Below are positions 23,933 to 32,095 of a stretch of 64,000 nt of DNA, piece by piece. Below the pieces are notes generated by a model, which searched no databases, had not been told where the DNA came from, and saw only the letters and a program-made list of their open reading frames with translations. The first letter of the stretch is position 1; each line of letters opens with the position of its first letter. Both the position numbers and the translations under genes were made by a program. The stretch is taken from assembly GCA_964016885.1 (NCBI GenBank), contig OZ024742.1, positions 309,876,001 through 309,940,000 on the forward strand, in the 5' to 3' direction. This stretch comes from Eledone cirrhosa. Its lineage: Eukaryota.

Positions 23933-25271
23933 GTGAAGAAGTGAAGAGGAAAGGGGGAGCGCCTCCTCTCTGGGCTTCCCCCGCGAAAAGAGTTGCACAC
24001 TTTTCGGGGGTATGTGCAATCCCCAACACGCCCCCTCCCTTTTGAGGACTTTTTATTGTTATATTATTATTGTTATTCCTTTTTTCTTTACTCGATTTAT
24101 GTAAACTCCCCCACTGTGTAAATGTCCCCTTCTTTTGTGCCCTCGTGGCAAATAAATAGAAATTTATCTATCTATCTATCTAAACCTATAGGCTGAGGAA
24201 GATAAACAGAGGGAAGACAGGAACACCTACAAAACGTATTCCTGGTGTTGAGGGTTGTTCTATCCACGGGGTTAAAAAAACCCTGCAGTAACCTTCCCCC
24301 CTATTGGGGATTTCAATTGTTATTTTATTATATACTAGCAGTGGTACCCGGCGTTGCACGGGATAAGGTATTTTGGAACGCGGGCCGCCAACAAACCTAA
24401 TTGTGGAAAACTGCATGCCTCGACAATATGTAAAGAAAATAAACCGAATACTGGCTGGATAATCTGTAAGATTTTCCCCGATGAAGCAGGAAAAATGCAG
24501 GTTTTCACCTAATGCGGGCCTTAGGACACCAAGAAAATGAATTTTTTTTATGTTCATAATACGCGTTGAAATTTCGGGAAAATCGGCTAGACGTAACGCC
24601 TAAAAAAAGCCCTAAAAAGCTGAAAAAATGAAGTTTTTCACCTAATGCGAGCCCTAGGCCATAAAAAAGTTGGATTTTCTTTGCTCACGGTATGAAGAAG
24701 AGGCTGACTAATACATAGTTACAATTTCAAGGAAATAGGTCTGACGTAACGCCTCAAAATACCCCTAAAAATCTGAACAAAAACGTAGTTTTTCACCTAA
24801 TGCGGGCCCTAGGGGATCAAAAGTTGAATTTTTATGTGCATAACAGTCCCTGAAACATAATGCGGGCCGCCAACAAACCTTATCGTGTGAAAACTGCATG
24901 CCTGGAGAATATGGAAAGAAAATAAACCGAATACTCTGATGCAATTAGTATTAGGTATGCTTCTCCTTCCACGTGAAGAAAATCGGCTTGGTGCTTTTGT
25001 ACTTTAATAAAGTATCATGAGTCAGCAGGACAGATGTCACCACTTATGTCGGAGGGAAGTCTGCAATGCTTGAGCAAGGCATAACGTGCAATCGGACAGC
25101 ATGTGGAGCCTTCTCGAAGGAGTCTACCGTACCTTAGTAAGTAAACGCAACTGGACAAATGTTTACCAAACTGTGGGTATAATTTAACAAATTTAAATTA
25201 AAATGGGCCCCGAGGCGTGTGCACGTTCACTGGCAGCTCTAAACGGAAGGGTCACCATCAGCTATTTCAAG

Positions 25272-25287
25272 GGCCCTTAAAAGGGCC
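25272..25287 (-). promoter_or_regulatory. Second histone-type stem-loop
   Basis: Minus strand reads ACGGCCCT-TTTA-AGGGCC; the 3' ACCA is absent. Confidence 0.5.
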
Positions 25288-25343
25288 GTGTAAGCCATTC
25301 ACTGACACCCCAGTAAGGAGGGGTAACCATCAACAATTTCAAG

Positions 25344-25363
25344 TGGTGGCCCTAAAAAGGGCC
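25344..25363 (-). promoter_or_regulatory. Histone-mRNA-type 3' stem-loop
   Basis: Minus strand reads GGCCCT-TTTT-AGGGCC-ACCA, matching the replication-dependent histone stem-loop consensus (6-bp stem, 4-nt loop, ACCA). Confidence 0.6.
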
Positions 25364-25857
25364 ATGTGAGCGTTCACTTGTAGGCCTTAATAGTGACTTT
25401 GCGTTCTCTGACATTTGAAGGAGGGTGTTACGGTTGCTTCCACTAGTAGCCTTTAGAATGAATCAGAATGCGTTCGCGGTCCGTTTAACAACCATACATT
25501 GACGCGCCGAGTGCGAAGCGGAAGGTCCATCTCTGAAGGTTGTCACCTGAAACCGAGGGAAAATGTATTTCAGGTAATAGGCCGTATGAATGGTAACCAG
25601 ATTGCCTAAAGAAATGTTGATAACGAACCTACCTCGTCCTTGTGCAAACGCAAGAAGACTCTCCCAGCTTCCAACTCTAGAGCACCCAACGAACAACGAT
25701 CCGCTTAACGATCTTTCATTGCCGCACCAATTGTCAAGGGGAAGGTTCTTAGCTGAAGGGTTCACCTTAAAACGTAGAAAAAAACGCATTTAAGTTAGTA
25801 GCCCGTACGAATTGCGACCAGATTGGTTTAAGAAAGGGCAATAATGAACATACCTTG

Positions 25858-28800
25858 TCACTGTTGCATATATAACACCTCGTTGTAAACAATGTTTCTT
25901 GTTTTCCCTCGTCGTGCAAATGCAAAAAGCCTCTCCCTGCTGCCAACTCTAGTGAACCCAACAATTGTTCGTGGCAGAAACAGGGCTCCTTCAGTAGAAG
26001 TCCGGCCACAGAAAGAGTCTGACCCTGGGACTTGTTAATGGACATGGCAAAACTGACCCGAAGCGGGAATTGCAGTCTTCTGAAGGTAAACGGAATTTCG
26101 GCTCCCGAGGGAGTAAGAGGAATTCTCGGAATGAAGACATCGCCGCCTTTTCCGCACCCAGAGAGGATTGTTGCCTCGATAACATGGTCTGCCATTTCCT
26201 TTACAGCCAGGTGTGTTCCGTTGCACAGCCTCGGTGGCTCCAAATTCCGCAGCAACACAACAGGAGTCCCTACTTTAAGGCGTAGCATGTGGGGCAGTAA
26301 TCCCGGAGACTATAAGGAGTTTAGGAATTGTGGTGGAAAGTTCACCACTTCATTTGGATCGGGCATCGTGTCAACAGACTTGTAGTGGCGAAGAGCACCA
26401 GGAAGGGAATCCAGTAGCAGGTCGTTGGAATTGTTGACAGTGGCGTTTTATGGAGCAAGCACTGCTCTTTCGCACAACCATGCGTGGTCCTGGAAATGGT
26501 GTTGCAAATCTGGAAACACTTTGTCTTTGACCTCTGCCGCAGAATTAACAGAAGTCGCAAATGGCCACACTTCCAGTTCACCTTCAGCGTCAAGAGGCAT
26601 GTTGCCGTCGTCAAGCTTCAGAATGTCCCCTGCAAAGTCAGCGGACGTTTGGTCACCATGCAATTGAGCCCTCATGTTGGTTGTAAGTGTCAGTTTCCTG
26701 ACATGGCGCCATAGGGGAGATGGCTTCAGACATGCTTGGACCACGTCAGCTCGTGTACCTTTGGGAATTACGGGGAGGGTCTGCCTGAAGTAGCCCGAAA
26801 GCAGAAGCGTAACACCTCCCATCGGATCCTGGCAGCCTCTGATATCCTGGAGGGTTGTGTTCAATGCGTCAAGAGCTCCTTTGTGAGCCATGGTGCACTC
26901 ATCCCAGACAATGAGTTGACACCGTTTCAGGACCTGGCCCTGGTCGGAATTCCTGCTGATGCTGCAAGTGGGTGTTTCTGACTTCGTTAAATTGAGGAGC
27001 TATTTAAAAGTGGAGTGTGCAGTCCTGCTATTGGGCAGCAAAGTTGCAGCAATCCCCGAAGAGGCCACAGCAACCGCAATGTCATTGTGCATCCTGACTT
27101 TTGCAAGGAGAAGCCTTGTTAAAAATGTTTTGCCCATCCCCCCAGGAGCATTCAGAAAGAACATACCTCTTTTTCTATGGCGCATATGGTCAGCGACAAT
27201 GGTGTAAACACGACGTTGATCCGGAAGAAGTTGTGGTTCAGTTTCATGGATGCACCTGGCAAGGTCATCGACGTCGTAGGATGTTTCCCGAAGAAGAGCT
27301 GTAGCAAGTACGTTTGACCCGGTACGGAGCGCTTGGGGCAGACCATATGACGGCAAATAATTTCTACCGAGTGATGCAACTCTCTCCTCAATGTCAATCA
27401 AAGCACAATTGAAGACCTCATCGCTGGTTCGTTCCATTTGAGAGTATTGCAGTTGCGCCCGGCGTTTGTAGTCCTCGGATATGTCTTCTTTGAACTGCAG
27501 CCACAAAGACATAGGATTGCTTAGTTCGCAAGTTTGTAGCATTACTGAAAATAGAGCTCGTAAACGCATAGGCGATTGAGATGCAACGGCTTCGAACAAA
27601 GTCGCTTCCCACTGCGCACCGTCTTCCAGCAGGCCACGATTGAAGCAAGCTTCCCTGTAAGTGCTGCACACGCAGCCGTCAAAAGTTCGGAGGTAGTGAA
27701 AAGATTGGGGTCCTCTTAACTCATGCAGCAAAAGGCGAAGGTAGAAGCACTCGTGCTGGTTCGGGTGCACAGTGTAAACCCTCCCAAGACAACTGTTAAA
27801 CTTTATGCCGGGATGTCCAGATTTACCTGCCTTTCTGCGCACCCATTGTTGCTTATTACATGTGTAGTAGGACGGCACCTGGGGGTAAAGCAGAGTCTGT
27901 GCAAAAGAGTCGGTCCGACACAGTTTAAAAAATCCAGTGAGGGTTGTTTCTCGTGGGTCCTCCACCATTTGGGCAGCATTAGCGTCGGTGAAGTAGACCC
28001 TTTGACCCTTCTGAAGCTGAACCGTGAGCTGTACAATAGCAGGGTGCCTTTGGTGTATTGGGAGGCCAAGATTCCGCCAGAAAGCCTCGTTGCTACTGAT
28101 GTAACGGCCAGCTTGGTATTGCGAGACCTCATAACGGCTGTGTCCTGCTGTAGACCGAACATAGCAGCGTCTGAACCCTTATTCACGTAGTTGCAGATGT
28201 ACTTGATGGACTTGACGGAGCTACAGAATTCCACGTTGATGTGGGCACCAAAGGTCTTCAAAAGAAGTGGGCAGTAGGGCACTATCCATCGGTTGTCAAC
28301 CTCGTGCTGTCCAACTGACGCTGTGAAACCACCGTCTCTGGGTTGCTGTCGTCTGTACAATGGGTATCCGTCCACGCCTGTCTGGGTTTCTTTAAGGAAC
28401 TTTCGGGGAAACCTTTTGCTGCAGACATTGCTGTTCATGCAAGGTGAGCTCAAATTGAAACCACGCCCACATGAACCATGGACGATGTTTGCCTTCACTA
28501 TTTCGTAGAGGTCTTTGTCCACAGACGGATCGGGAAGCTCAGCGGAGATGACCTTGTCAATGTCGTTTGGAGATATTCTTGCGGACAGCCAGATGAGGAT
28601 ATGGGCATGCGGTAGGCGCCTCTTCTGCCACTCGACGGTGTACATGTCGCATATAACTGGTCCGAAGACTTGTCCTCTCTTGATGAGCTTCATCAGGTTG
28701 ATAAGCTTCAGCCGAAAGACTCTGGCCAGGATGTCAAGCCTGTCTTTGGTCTGTTGCCCTTGGAACAGTTCTGCAGCAATCTCCTTCCACTTAGGATTGC

Positions 28801-30338
28801 AAGTGAAAGTGATGAACAGGTAGGGCTTGCCGTAATGCCGAGCGTAAGTCATGGCATCTTGCGTCCTCTCGTGCATGTAGCGCAGACTTCCGGTGAAAGT
28901 GGATGGAAGGATGCAGAGTTTTCCTACGCTGGCTGGCGCTGCATCATTGGTGAGGGCATCTCAGAGGTGGATGTAGCTCTCAGACCGCAATTGCCTCTGG
29001 TGTGACCGGATGAAGCACAACCTTTCTGATTGCATTTTCGCACACATGTCGACGGCGAATTTCTGAAAGAGGTCTCTTGATTGGTGCAGGTGGTTGAATA
29101 AGTTGCGGCGTAACATTAAGCGGTAAGAGTAGAAACTCATGCAGGAAACAGTTTTATTGGTTGAACGCCCAGGATGTTCGGGATTATCCTGAGGAATACC
29201 AAATTTATGACATTGAAATTTGATGCAGGAGCTGCTTCCAATGCATACTTGAAGCTGATGACATAGAAGTTGTATGTGTGCAAAATGTCTTGTAGGTTTT
29301 TGATAATGTCAAGGTTGGTGCCAGGTGAAATGGAGTTCCGCATGGCAGCCTATTCGTTCATATTCCCGACGAAGTAAATTTGGAGGAACTGGGGACCTTC
29401 GTTGGCAGTAGGTTGGAGCGGTCCGATTCTATGATATACCTGCCCTCGCACTTTAAATGTGGGCATAAATCCACCGTCTCTGACAACATTTGCCCCGAAA
29501 GATGTCATCTTGAAGGCGCAATTGTACTTCCGGATATTACTGAGAAAGTGCTTTGAATCGGCAGTTGAGCCTGAAAGGAGGATCTTCAGCAGCTGTGGTG
29601 GGTCCTCCAGTGGGTGCAATTTGACCTTCCCGTTAGAGCAGCACATACCAGGGGGTTCCCCCGACCACTTTTTGGCATTGCAAAATGAGCACGTTTTTGA
29701 CATACTTCCAAGTGTCTTATGTGGGTGGCTGCCGTAATGAAAGTTGGGGCTGTACTCGAAAGCTTTGAAGGCCCATTGTGAGCTGCACGGCTTTGAAACA
29801 CCTTGCCTAAGGGCTCTTCGTTGGACATTACTCTCTAGACGGTTATCGCGGTCTTGCGCCGTTTTGGAAACTCGAGCAGCAGCAGTGTTCGCAGCATCCG
29901 TTGCTCGACGTCTAATGCGCTGTTCTTCGTTCTCCGCAGCCCGTGAAGCAGAAGTTGACGCGGCATCAGATGTTCGGTAACGTTTACGCTATTGGTCTGG
30001 CTCCGCAGTTCTTGCACCAGACGTTGAGGCGGCGTTAGCGGTATGGCGGTTTCGACGCTGGTCTTCATTCTCTGCAGCTCTTGCAGCAGATGTTGATGCC
30101 GCGTTAGCGGCATGGCGGCTTCGACGCTGGTGTTCAGTCTCTGCAGCTCTTGTAGCAGCAGTCAAAACGGCAATAGTTGTTCGGCGAGCGGTTCGTTGGC
30201 ACCACTTACGGCACCACGTTCAGCAGCTTGTGACCGTCGGATAGCAGAATCCTCTGATGATTCCTTTGCCCGCCTTGCTCTTGTCATTGCAGCTTTCACA
30301 GTTTTTCGTCCGATGGAGTATCTCTTCATTCGAGGCAT
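25858..30338 (-). pseudogene. Helitron RepHel transposase (HUH Rep + PIF1-type helicase), with multiple stops and frameshifts
   Basis: Zinc finger CSFCNAKKW..CC. Rep motifs FITFTCNPKW, VEWQKRRLPHAHILIW, KYICNYVNKG. Helicase motifs APGGMGKTF, AVASSGIAATLL, RTAHSTFK, FRQTLPVI, LCNGT, QFPLRVSFAMSINKSQGQTL. C-terminus TRNIVYNEVL. Confidence 0.93.
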
Positions 30339-31581
30339 GACCTAAAATTAGGAGGAAGGGCAGTGAGACTCACTCCTAGAGCAAAGGCTAATTTGTAAGT
30401 GAATTGCATTAGATGTTTATGGATTTGTCTACTGGTATGTAGCATAAAGGCAAGGCAACTTGCTTAACTACCCTCAGGGTATTGGGATGACAGTAAGCTT
30501 AACATTGCGACAACCGAGGCCAAAAAAGAAGTAAAGGTCAATGATACGATTGTGGGCAGCACTGTAAAAAAGTGTAGGCATTAGAGCCTACGTGCATTAG
30601 GTGAAAACTGGAGAGAGAAACTGTGTGTGCGTGTGCGCTTACCAAATGTCTGTTGAATGAGTGGTAGATTTGGCCTTCAGCAGGGGTAGCAGAGCAACAG
30701 GTGTCAGAGGGTTGGTGGTTTTTCTGCTAGTCATTTATAATTCTTACAAAGTATAAAATTTACACACCAAAAAATATATACAATACTCTATTTCTTAAGT
30801 AATTCGCATAAAATTGCAACACTGTGAAAATTGAAGCTATTATAACGATGTTTTTTTTACCGGCTTTAATTTTTAGTGTTGTGTGAAATATATAACCTGC
30901 AAACCTGATTTTTGAATCGCAGGATCGACTTTATTTCACTCGCTCCACTAAAAGTTGGATTTTCTTTGCTCACGGTATGAAGAAGAGACTGACTAATACA
31001 TAGTTACCGGCTTTCATTTTTAGTGTTGTGTGAAATATATAACCGCCTTAGCTAAGCTTAGTATTGCCACAACCGCGGCTGGCAAAGAAGTAAGGGTCTG
31101 GTGGTATGTAAGTAAGCAACATTGTGGCTTAAAACGTGAGGAAGAAGTTGTGTGCACTTACCAACTGTTTGGGGAATGAGTGTGAGATTTGTCTTGAGCA
31201 AGGGTGGCGGAATAACCGGAGGCAGCAGACAGAAAGACATACAGGCAGATATTATAAGGGCGCGTTATGGACGCATATGGAATTGTGGGAAGTGACGTAA
31301 TGCAGATAGCCAGACATACAGACAGATATTATAAGGGCGCGACGTTATATGTATGTATCTATCTAAAAAGAGAAAGACTAAGAATTATAGAGAGAGATCG
31401 CTAAATCGCCTAATGCGGTCCCTAGAGCATTGAAAATTTGAGATTTATTTTGCTCAGAACACTCCCTGAAACATAAGTATTACATGTGTAAAGTTTGAAA
31501 ACAGTGGGTTGGGTGCTTCTCGAGTTTTAGGGATTCAAACTCACACACACAGACAGACATCCTCAGTTTTATATATATAGA

Positions 31582-32095
31582 CTAGCAGAAAACGACCCGG
31601 TGGGCGGTTTTCTGCTAGCAAATCTAGTGTATATACTGATATTGTTGAGATTTGGATGAGAAATGTTTTCGGCACCACATGTCCACCGTCTCTCAGTGTG
31701 TCTTTTATGCATGTATAAATATATATGTTATCTATACGGTGAAATCTTTGAAATAAATATATGTTAAAACGAAAAAGGAGAAAAAGAGATTAGTGACGGA
31801 AATATAAACGTTATGATACATAAACGTTATGATATAACGATGGAAATATATAAACGTTTACGATAAAACGATGGAAATAGAAACGTTTATATATAATGAT
31901 AAGCCGAAACACTCGTAAGGCGAAACACTCGTAAGTCGAAACACTCGTAAAGCGAAACGTATAAATAAAGATTAATGTAATGAATTTGAAAAGCATAGAG
32001 ATTTGAAACCGCGTCTATTTGTTTCCTTGGCATTTTTTACAGACGGACAGACAGACAAACAAACAAAGGAATTCCCATTATCTATTATAAGTAGA
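31582..32095 (-). mobile_element. Non-autonomous Helitron fused head-to-tail to the large Helitron
   Basis: Minus-strand 5' end TCTACTTATAATAG...(TCTG)n at 32095. 3' CTAG at 31582-31585 lies within a terminal hairpin. Confidence 0.7.

Follow-up and report, generated by a model that had tools for sequence, protein, structure and literature searches.

A histone-type 3'-end cassette behind the RepHel gene in several Helitron families of Eledone cirrhosa

Several Helitron families in the genome of Eledone cirrhosa carry, behind the gene for their RepHel protein, a short cassette that resembles the 3' end of animal histone genes. It was found in five RepHel families (A1, A2, B-long, C, and E), in each case on the sense strand and about 200-590 nt behind RepHel. 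The starting point was a preliminary description of the window, i.e., the whole stretch of 64 kb of DNA analyzed here (positions 309,876,001 to 309,940,000 of contig OZ024742.1, assembly GCA_964016885.1), which contains a copy of family A1. The feature is real, the copy in the window is an ordinary dead one, and the cassette is an uncommon family trait with good comparative support. As five related families keep the signal, the active ancestors of these elements would, on balance, seem to have ended their RepHel mRNA by the SLBP/U7 route of histone messages, without a poly(A) tail and tied to S phase or oocytes.

The element in the window is a canonical Helitron of about 7.2 kb on the minus strand. 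Its RepHel gene (25870..30338, minus strand; start ATG assigned by eye) contains the domains Helitron_like_N, PIF1, and Pif1_2B (PF14214, PF05970, PF21530), all over the cut-off. The gene is colinear with that of an intact relative of 1598 aa, without an intron-sized gap, but it is broken: its aligned parts contain two frameshifts and six stops, and the family stop TAA (25872-25870) reads TAT. The copy in the window is dead. A possible intron in the 5' leader (30342..30642, minus strand), bounded by GTAAGC and a TTTTAG just before the ATG, was noted by eye. The likely 5' end (31284..31581, minus strand, with TC at 31581-31580) is followed immediately by the 3' region in copies with internal deletions. 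The 3' terminus (24335..24362, minus strand) consists of a palindrome (24362-24347) and CTAG (24338-24335), a motif shared by the relatives, and lies about 900 nt past the histone-type hairpins. An old duplication of the RepHel 3' end and the DNA following it (25535..25962, minus strand) accounts for a distance from stop to hairpin that is about 220 nt longer in A1 than in A2. Family A1 occupies at least 254 candidate places in the host assembly of 3.0 Gb and is present in three contig sets of one sample. In the neighborhood of the element, another Helitron-type 3' end with palindrome and CTAG (31582-31612) abuts its likely 5' TC. On the other side, four head-to-tail copies of a non-LTR retrotransposon with APE endonuclease, RT, and zf-RVT domains (1244-23932) end about 400 nt from the Helitron CTAG; each of the four has an open ORF2 of 1166-1168 aa, with 99.4-99.9% identity among them.

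Two histone-type hairpins had been described on the coding strand of RepHel, the second 76 nt beyond the first, and both were confirmed. Stem-loop 1, GGCCCT-TTTT-AGGGCC, is located at 25363-25348 on the minus strand and is followed by ACCA up to 25344; stem-loop 2, GGCCCT-TTTA-AGGGCC, is located at 25287-25272 on the same strand, in the second unit of a 76-nt repeat. The repeat is genuine but is not confined to two copies, as had been thought: decayed units, recognized by eye, are present on either side, one at 25205..25230 (minus strand), in which GAACG is kept and the hairpin is broken, and another at about 25406-25383 (minus strand). The distance from the RepHel stop to the first hairpin, originally given as about 495 nt, is 506 nt when counted from the family stop TAA. 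As had been reported, neither AATAAA nor ATTAAA occurs between the stop and the hairpins, the sole such signal within the element being an ATTAAA at 25008, downstream of them. Likewise, no histone coding sequence was detected nearby, the best E value in the window being 0.33 in tblastn searches with the host H3, H4, H2A, and H2B proteins; with the same queries, the best E value in the 3' regions of the families was 0.12, so that no coding remnant was found there either.

The hairpin has the 6-bp stem, the G-C at pair 2, and the U at loop position 3 of histone mRNA 3' ends. The pattern GGYYCTTTTHAGRRCC has two matches in the 64-kb window and none in any of 100 shuffled versions of it. With the Rfam model Histone3 (RF00032), hairpin 1 scored 28.6 bits (E value 1.3e-5 over 1.7 kb) and hairpin 2 scored 17 bits, both below the Rfam gathering score of 34 bits; a scan of the whole 64-kb window with Rfam at gathering level gave no match. 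When folded in context, both stems had pair probabilities of 0.8-1.0, and a z-score of -2.5 was obtained for the 176 nt around the hairpins.

The hairpin is part of a conserved unit of about 47 nt, composed of (T/A)GAACG, 6-8 nt, the hairpin, A(C/A)C, 7-9 nt, and ATTGT at +11 to +13. Across the families, the motifs and the lengths of the spacers are constant while the letters of the spacers vary. In the window, the upstream box GAACG is located at 25375-25371 (minus strand; position -12); every Helitron cassette has this box, as do histone ends of other animals, and it is missing from all of 37 host histone ends. The downstream element had been called not obvious in the preliminary description, a view that has to be revised, as a conserved ATTGT box is present at 25337-25333 (minus strand; position +11) and is a candidate U7-pairing element; ATTGT is retained at +11 to +13 in families A1, B, C, D, and E. 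Histone pre-mRNA is cut about 5 nt after the stem (10.64898/2026.10.14.759114, Introduction); if this rule holds for the 3' flank ACCAC (25343..25347, minus strand), the predicted cut would fall after 25343. Stem-loop 2 of the window copy lacks both ACC and ATTGT, and its upstream box reads GAATG.

The distribution of the cassette among the Helitrons of the genome was surveyed by collecting RepHel C-terminal regions through Pfam and protein searches and grouping a chosen subset of the matches into 17 lineages. One further locus (L204) was left out of the count as an interrupted A1 copy; it clusters with A1, and its stop is followed at once by a LINE-like insertion. An intact cassette was present on the sense strand behind RepHel in 4 of the 17 protein-sampled lineages, namely A1, A2, B-long, and C. 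Counted from the last conserved RepHel codon, the sense-strand hairpins are located at +512 and +588 in A1, at +289 in A2 (94% protein identity to A1 over 149 aa), and at +278 in B-long (72% protein identity to A1), while family C (81% protein identity to A1) has two to three units between +458 and +662. Two more families, D and E, were added by a motif search of the genome, which gave 435 matches as compared to 0 for the control; being found by their motif, they do not form part of an unbiased sample. Family E (70% protein identity to A1) has its sense-strand hairpin at +205. Family D is a nonautonomous Helitron of about 1.3 kb, known from 17 loci, with a perfect cassette and no coding frame that could be found. 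All 30 loci returned from the 435 matches bear the signature of one of these six families; without GAACG in the pattern, 425 matches were obtained versus 0 for the control, with only known families among the 100 matches listed. No antisense cassette was seen among the loci with RepHel. Two observations of another kind concern the repeats met in the survey: hairpin matches at four loci (L099, L151, L155, L156) have unrelated flanks and are probably chance matches in another repeat, and at one locus (L329, C1:163627000-163645000) pieces of family C stand in tandem with a period of 4.4 kb.

Among the non-carriers of the 17 lineages, the cassette is decayed in one (F10a), deleted in another (B-short), and absent from 11 (F0, F3, F4, F5, F7, F8, F9, F10b, F12, F13, and L203, up to 2.5 kb behind the stop). 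The cassette-free lineages include the youngest ones, F7, with open frames of 1598 aa that are 1.1% from their majority sequence, and F8 (0.9%), as well as F9, which is 87-89% identical to A1 and A2. The cassette is not general among the Helitrons of the genome, given the 4 of 17 protein-sampled lineages with an intact one and the youngest intact families without it. In family B, 20 of 33 distinct copies have lost the cassette through a deletion of 300 nt, 7 retain it (including one found by its motif), and 6 are unclear. The short form is less diverged than the cassette-bearing form (2.1% versus 3.2%). B-short and B-long each have an open majority frame; in 400 codons, the two frames show 19 silent and 14 replacement differences, which are not assignable to a branch. 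A short element derived from E that lacks the cassette has also spread well. As a separate observation, near-identical copies of family F0 (L063-L090; C16, C19, C20, C27) are found about 100 kb apart along C20 and C27, which suggests a very large repeat unit.

No poly(A) signal precedes the hairpin in the window copy or in the majority sequences of A1, A2, B, and C. ATTAAA was present before the hairpin in one copy of E and is missing from the majority sequence of that family. Downstream of the hairpin, ATTAAA or AATAAA is present in A1, A2, and B, and no poly(A) signal was found in the 3' region of family C. Outside the genome of E. cirrhosa, no relatives of the Helitrons were found in the sets viral_contigs and genome_contigs and no match to the cassette in viral_contigs, while 2271 longer RepHel relatives exist as protein records, which come without DNA.

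Families A1, B, C, and E have 67-81% protein identity, and the four-fold sites of RepHel, with 18-30% identity among A1, B, and C, are saturated. When the 3' regions of A1, B, C, D, and E (495-920 nt) were compared by blastn, the cassette, with a match of 35-57 nt, was the only match. Between A1 and A2, the hairpin is identical at 16 of 16 positions versus 256 of 345 around it, a background of 74%. In A2, the loss of the 7 nt that follow the hairpin has shifted the box to +4. Within family A1, both hairpins are present in the majority sequence of 30 copies, and changes affect 35 of 898 of their letters versus 500 of 14,107 around them (p 0.58, CpG excluded); such decay at background rate is as it should be in dead copies and was not used for or against selection. 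A different situation was encountered in F10a, which took over the whole 3' end of B (L224, L248), so that the cassette came to lie about 640 nt from the stop of another RepHel. Here, the hairpin is identical to that of B at 13 of 16 positions versus 393 of 456 in the background, and the two copies seen each have alterations in the upstream as well as the downstream box. The hairpin of F10a decays like its background, which argues that the motif is not merely slow to mutate. Another 3'-end swap was observed in F9, which shares about the last 150 nt with F8 (L200-L202 versus L213-L221). Such swapping, in F10a and B as well as in F9 and F8, uncouples the cassette from the enzyme. In a RepHel tree based on 149 columns, which is poorly resolved, the carriers are scattered; a tree with the carriers as a single clade was rejected (p-AU 0.008) on this short alignment.

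The core histone genes of the host, H3, H2A, and H2B ends included, carry the same 16-mer, GG(C/T)CCT-TTT(T/C/A)-AGGGCC, 19-38 nt after the stop, as do 4 of 12 host loci with an H1 domain. The RNA-binding domain of a host SLBP was recognized over the cut-off (PF15247) in two adjacent pieces on C13. A search for U7 with RF00066 gave no match among 65 scored of 585,730 candidates, a depth too shallow to mean absence. The flanks of the host hairpins are of another type than those of the Helitrons: GAACG, C as the first letter of the loop, and ATTGY at +10 to +13 are absent from all of 37 distinct host histone ends, 4 of which belong to H1, and a WWWGT box at +15 to +18 is present in 28 of the 37 host ends versus none of 8 Helitron cassettes. 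Lacking this host-type box, the Helitron cassettes may not be processed by the U7 of the host. Derivation of the cassette from a histone gene of the present-day host was rejected on these grounds (0 of 37 ends with GAACG or with ATTGY at +10 to +13). Host-type ends do occur in another repeat of the genome (L132-L160, on C1), which carries host H4 3' ends, hairpin and downstream flank included, in inverted arms; of the 1054 exact hairpins counted genome-wide, many belong to this repeat.

Histone ends more like the cassette were found in other animals. A scan of metagenome contigs for the GAACG-hairpin combination gave 49 stretches at 45 loci, and 5 of the 45 are real H4, H2A, or H2B genes with GAACG-hairpin ends (L254, L256, L265, L279, L291); since the scan pattern demanded GAACG, the frequency of such histone ends is not readable from it. 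ATTGY, which was not in the search pattern, is present at +10 to +13 in 5 of 7 foreign histone ends, and a C at loop position 1 in 6 of 7. The match between the cassette and real histone gene ends extends over about 40 nt and includes both boxes, and the first unit of family C shares GTGAACGATCCAA plus the hairpin with the histone genes of L265. The H4 protein of L254 is identical to that of Macrostomum lignano, among other records, the clusters of the L265 H2B and the L256 H2A span many phyla, and the L279 H2A had no entry in the collection searched. The histone genes of some animals thus have a fixed GAACG box 12 nt before the hairpin, often with a C at loop position 1, for which no description was found in a literature search judged from its listing. 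This box is common to the histone genes of some animals and to the Helitron elements. Because the histone ends of today's host have other flanks, the cassette probably came from another animal lineage or represents the form of an ancestral host.

The same cassette was found behind other transposases in the metagenome contigs. After setting aside the 5 histone loci, 12 loci with a GC content of at least 50%, and 3 loci too near the start of a contig, 25 testable AT-rich nonhistone loci were left. In 17 of these, the cassette is located 15-120 nt behind an open frame of at least 100 aa on the same strand, as compared to 1.9 expected from random places; one of the 17 matches is probably due to chance, and two pairs among them are related. 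Transposases of the Tc1/mariner type precede the cassette by 25 nt (L286), 28 nt (L285), and 36 nt (L262), an ISXO2/Merlin transposase by 84 nt (L267), and a Harbinger-type DDE_Tnp_4 nuclease by 36 nt (L275). The first of these loci is a whole Tc1 element with perfect inverted ends of 27 nt, an open frame of 351 aa, and no AATAAA or ATTAAA after the stop. Four RING-finger genes are also among the frames followed by a cassette. In a set of contigs (L257, L261, L263, L266, L268, L272, L274, L276, L277, L278, and L293), the gene at a distance of 25-111 nt before the cassette encodes a RING finger or is a frame that belongs to no Pfam family, and these contigs are possibly large mobile or virus-like elements. 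In yet another contig (L280), which has no frame upstream of them, three GAACG-hairpin cassettes stand in tandem, 73-77 nt apart, and AATAAA follows every one. None of the 45 metagenome loci matched RepHel, so the evidence concerning Helitrons comes from one genome.

Both Helitrons and cut-and-paste transposons depend on the replication of host DNA or profit from it when they transpose (PMC5371812). In the mechanism proposed for the active ancestors, RepHel would have been transcribed and its message would have ended at the cassette, without a poly(A) tail. As predicted, the hairpin would be recognized by SLBP, the downstream box would form base pairs with U7, and the RNA would be cut by CPSF73 about 5 nt after the stem. 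The RepHel message would be confined to S phase or oocytes, by which transposition would be tied to DNA replication. The copy in the window is a dead remnant, and constraint on the cassette has probably been relaxed in the present host. Such relaxation, in a host with a different downstream box, is consistent with what B-short, A2, and F10a have lost and with the lack of a cassette in the youngest intact families.

Several observations stand against a histone-type ending or would limit its effect. Introns disfavor histone-type 3' processing, and the RepHel gene of the window has a possible 5' intron. The H2A.X.1 gene of Hydractinia has both an intron and a stem-loop (PMC5011920). In a survey of histone mRNAs from 2,281 animal species, the median distance from stop to hairpin was 30 nt, and 25-60 nt was said to be critical for the control of stability (10.64898/2026.10.14.759114). 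The Helitrons lie outside this range, both in the window copy and in the five families as a group, whereas the Tc1 and Harbinger cases, with 25-36 nt, lie within it; the long distance would weaken decay in the cell cycle even if cleavage works. Family D, in addition, keeps a perfect cassette without a coding frame that could be found. In planarians, histone mRNAs with a stem-loop and poorly adenylated transcripts feed the production of piRNA (PMC10954484), and by analogy a histone-type ending could carry a piRNA cost for the transposon.

The choice left by the preliminary description was between co-option of the SLBP/U7 pathway and passive capture of a histone 3' end. Capture without later use would mean that histone 3' ends of an earlier or foreign host were picked up by read-through, once or several times, and were then duplicated and swapped, which is considered rather unlikely. 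Helitrons have been shown to capture flanking DNA (PMC4778049), a Culex Helentron carries broken H4 and H1 fragments (PMC4067079), and the long distance from the stop, the loss in most families and in the youngest ones, the success of B-short, the scatter of carriers on the tree, and the perfect cassette in noncoding family D would all be expected of an unused sequence. The scattered carriers together with the 3'-end swaps mean, moreover, that the same motif pattern would result, with no selection in the Helitron, if ends had been captured repeatedly from different foreign histone genes. However, it is the signal alone that is shared, with no common flank beyond it and no histone coding remnant, and it stands on the same strand and the same side of RepHel in five of five families. 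The hairpin of A1 and A2 is fully kept at a background of 74%, yet it decays at the background rate in F10a, and in three other superfamilies the cassette follows intact transposases at distances like those in histone genes. Selection appears, from these comparisons, to have acted on the cassette inside Helitrons. The comparison across families favors selection over a single passive capture, which makes co-option the better of the two readings for the ancestral active elements; this does not extend to the dead and neutrally decaying copy in the window.

The hairpin could also have been a binding site for SLBP that is not cut with the aid of U7, stabilizing, storing, or helping to translate a longer RepHel mRNA that ends elsewhere, e.g., in oocytes, or soaking up SLBP. 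Such a role has a small probability. It would explain that the hairpin is kept in A2 despite the deletion of the flank behind it, that A1 and C have extra tandem hairpins, that ATTAAA or AATAAA follows the hairpin in A1, A2, and B, and that the downstream box is unlike that of the host. However, A1, B, C, D, and E all retain this box and its spacing, which is more in keeping with a cleavage signal than with a site for binding only, and the 3' region of family C has no poly(A) signal that could be found. That the repeated palindrome acts as DNA, being bound by RepHel or pausing rolling-circle copying, with a likeness to histone ends that arose by chance, is very improbable. Tandem repeats and the preservation of the palindrome in nonautonomous copies would suit such an element, and Helitrons do use a DNA hairpin as termination signal (PMC4778049), but the present ones have a terminal hairpin and CTAG of their own about 900 nt further on. 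Moreover, a match to real histone ends of about 40 nt with both boxes exceeds a palindrome, the cassette is also found behind DDE transposases without RepHel, and copies lacking it (B-short and the short element derived from E) have spread well.

Histone-type ending of the RepHel message, the preferred reading, may be set beside known systems. The metazoan histone mRNA 3' end (RF00032; SLBP, U7 snRNP, HDE) has in common with the cassette a 6-bp stem, a 4-nt loop, a G-C at stem position 2, a U at loop position 3, an ACC flank, a downstream box, and the absence of a prior poly(A) signal. The Helitron cassette differs in that it stands behind a 4.5-kb nonhistone gene, 200-590 nt instead of about 30 nt from the stop, and below the Rfam gathering score; in addition, its box ATTGT is not purine-rich, it has an extra GAACG upstream, and it occurs in tandem copies. 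With the canonical Helitron of the Helraiser type (PMC4778049), the element in the window shares a 5' TC, RepHel, and a palindrome near the CTAG end, to which it adds an internal histone-type cassette apart from the terminal hairpin, a feature without mention in the accessible text of that source. The nearest published case found is that of Helentron-Cq-32A of Culex (PMC4067079), also a rolling-circle element with DNA derived from histone genes. There, according to the accessible text, broken coding fragments of host H4 and H1 are involved, whereas the present elements have the 3' signal only, of a non-host type and in five families. The L132-L160 repeat of the same genome is likewise a transposon with the same 16-mer; its downstream flank copies the host H4 end, in inverted arms, in contrast to the non-host flanks of the Helitron cassette. 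A literature search in which subscription journals were thinly covered, and which was mostly judged from listings, found no report of histone-type 3' ends in transposons, and the terms "transpos", "non-histone", and "helitron" are absent from the main text of the 2026 survey of the pathway (10.64898/2026.10.14.759114). New here are the family-level survey of Helitrons, the two boxes, the non-host type of the cassette, and its losses.

According to a published description, no metazoan protein-coding mRNAs other than those of replication-dependent histones carry a 3' stem-loop in place of a poly(A) tail (PMC6303110). A wider and tentative proposal, falling somewhat short of probable, is that DNA transposons of several superfamilies (Helitron, Tc1/mariner, Merlin, and Harbinger) make their transposase mRNA by the SLBP/U7 route, by which transposition would be timed to S phase or the egg. 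The flanks of the cassette would be tuned to a host lineage, and the Helitrons would still be marked by a former host and would lose the cassette after moving into one with a different histone signal. If true, transposase messages would break the histone-only rule for stem-loop ends and would be under-counted in poly(A)-selected RNA data, DNA transposons would gain a way to act while DNA is copied, and the cassette would provide a new marker of the earlier host of a transposon.
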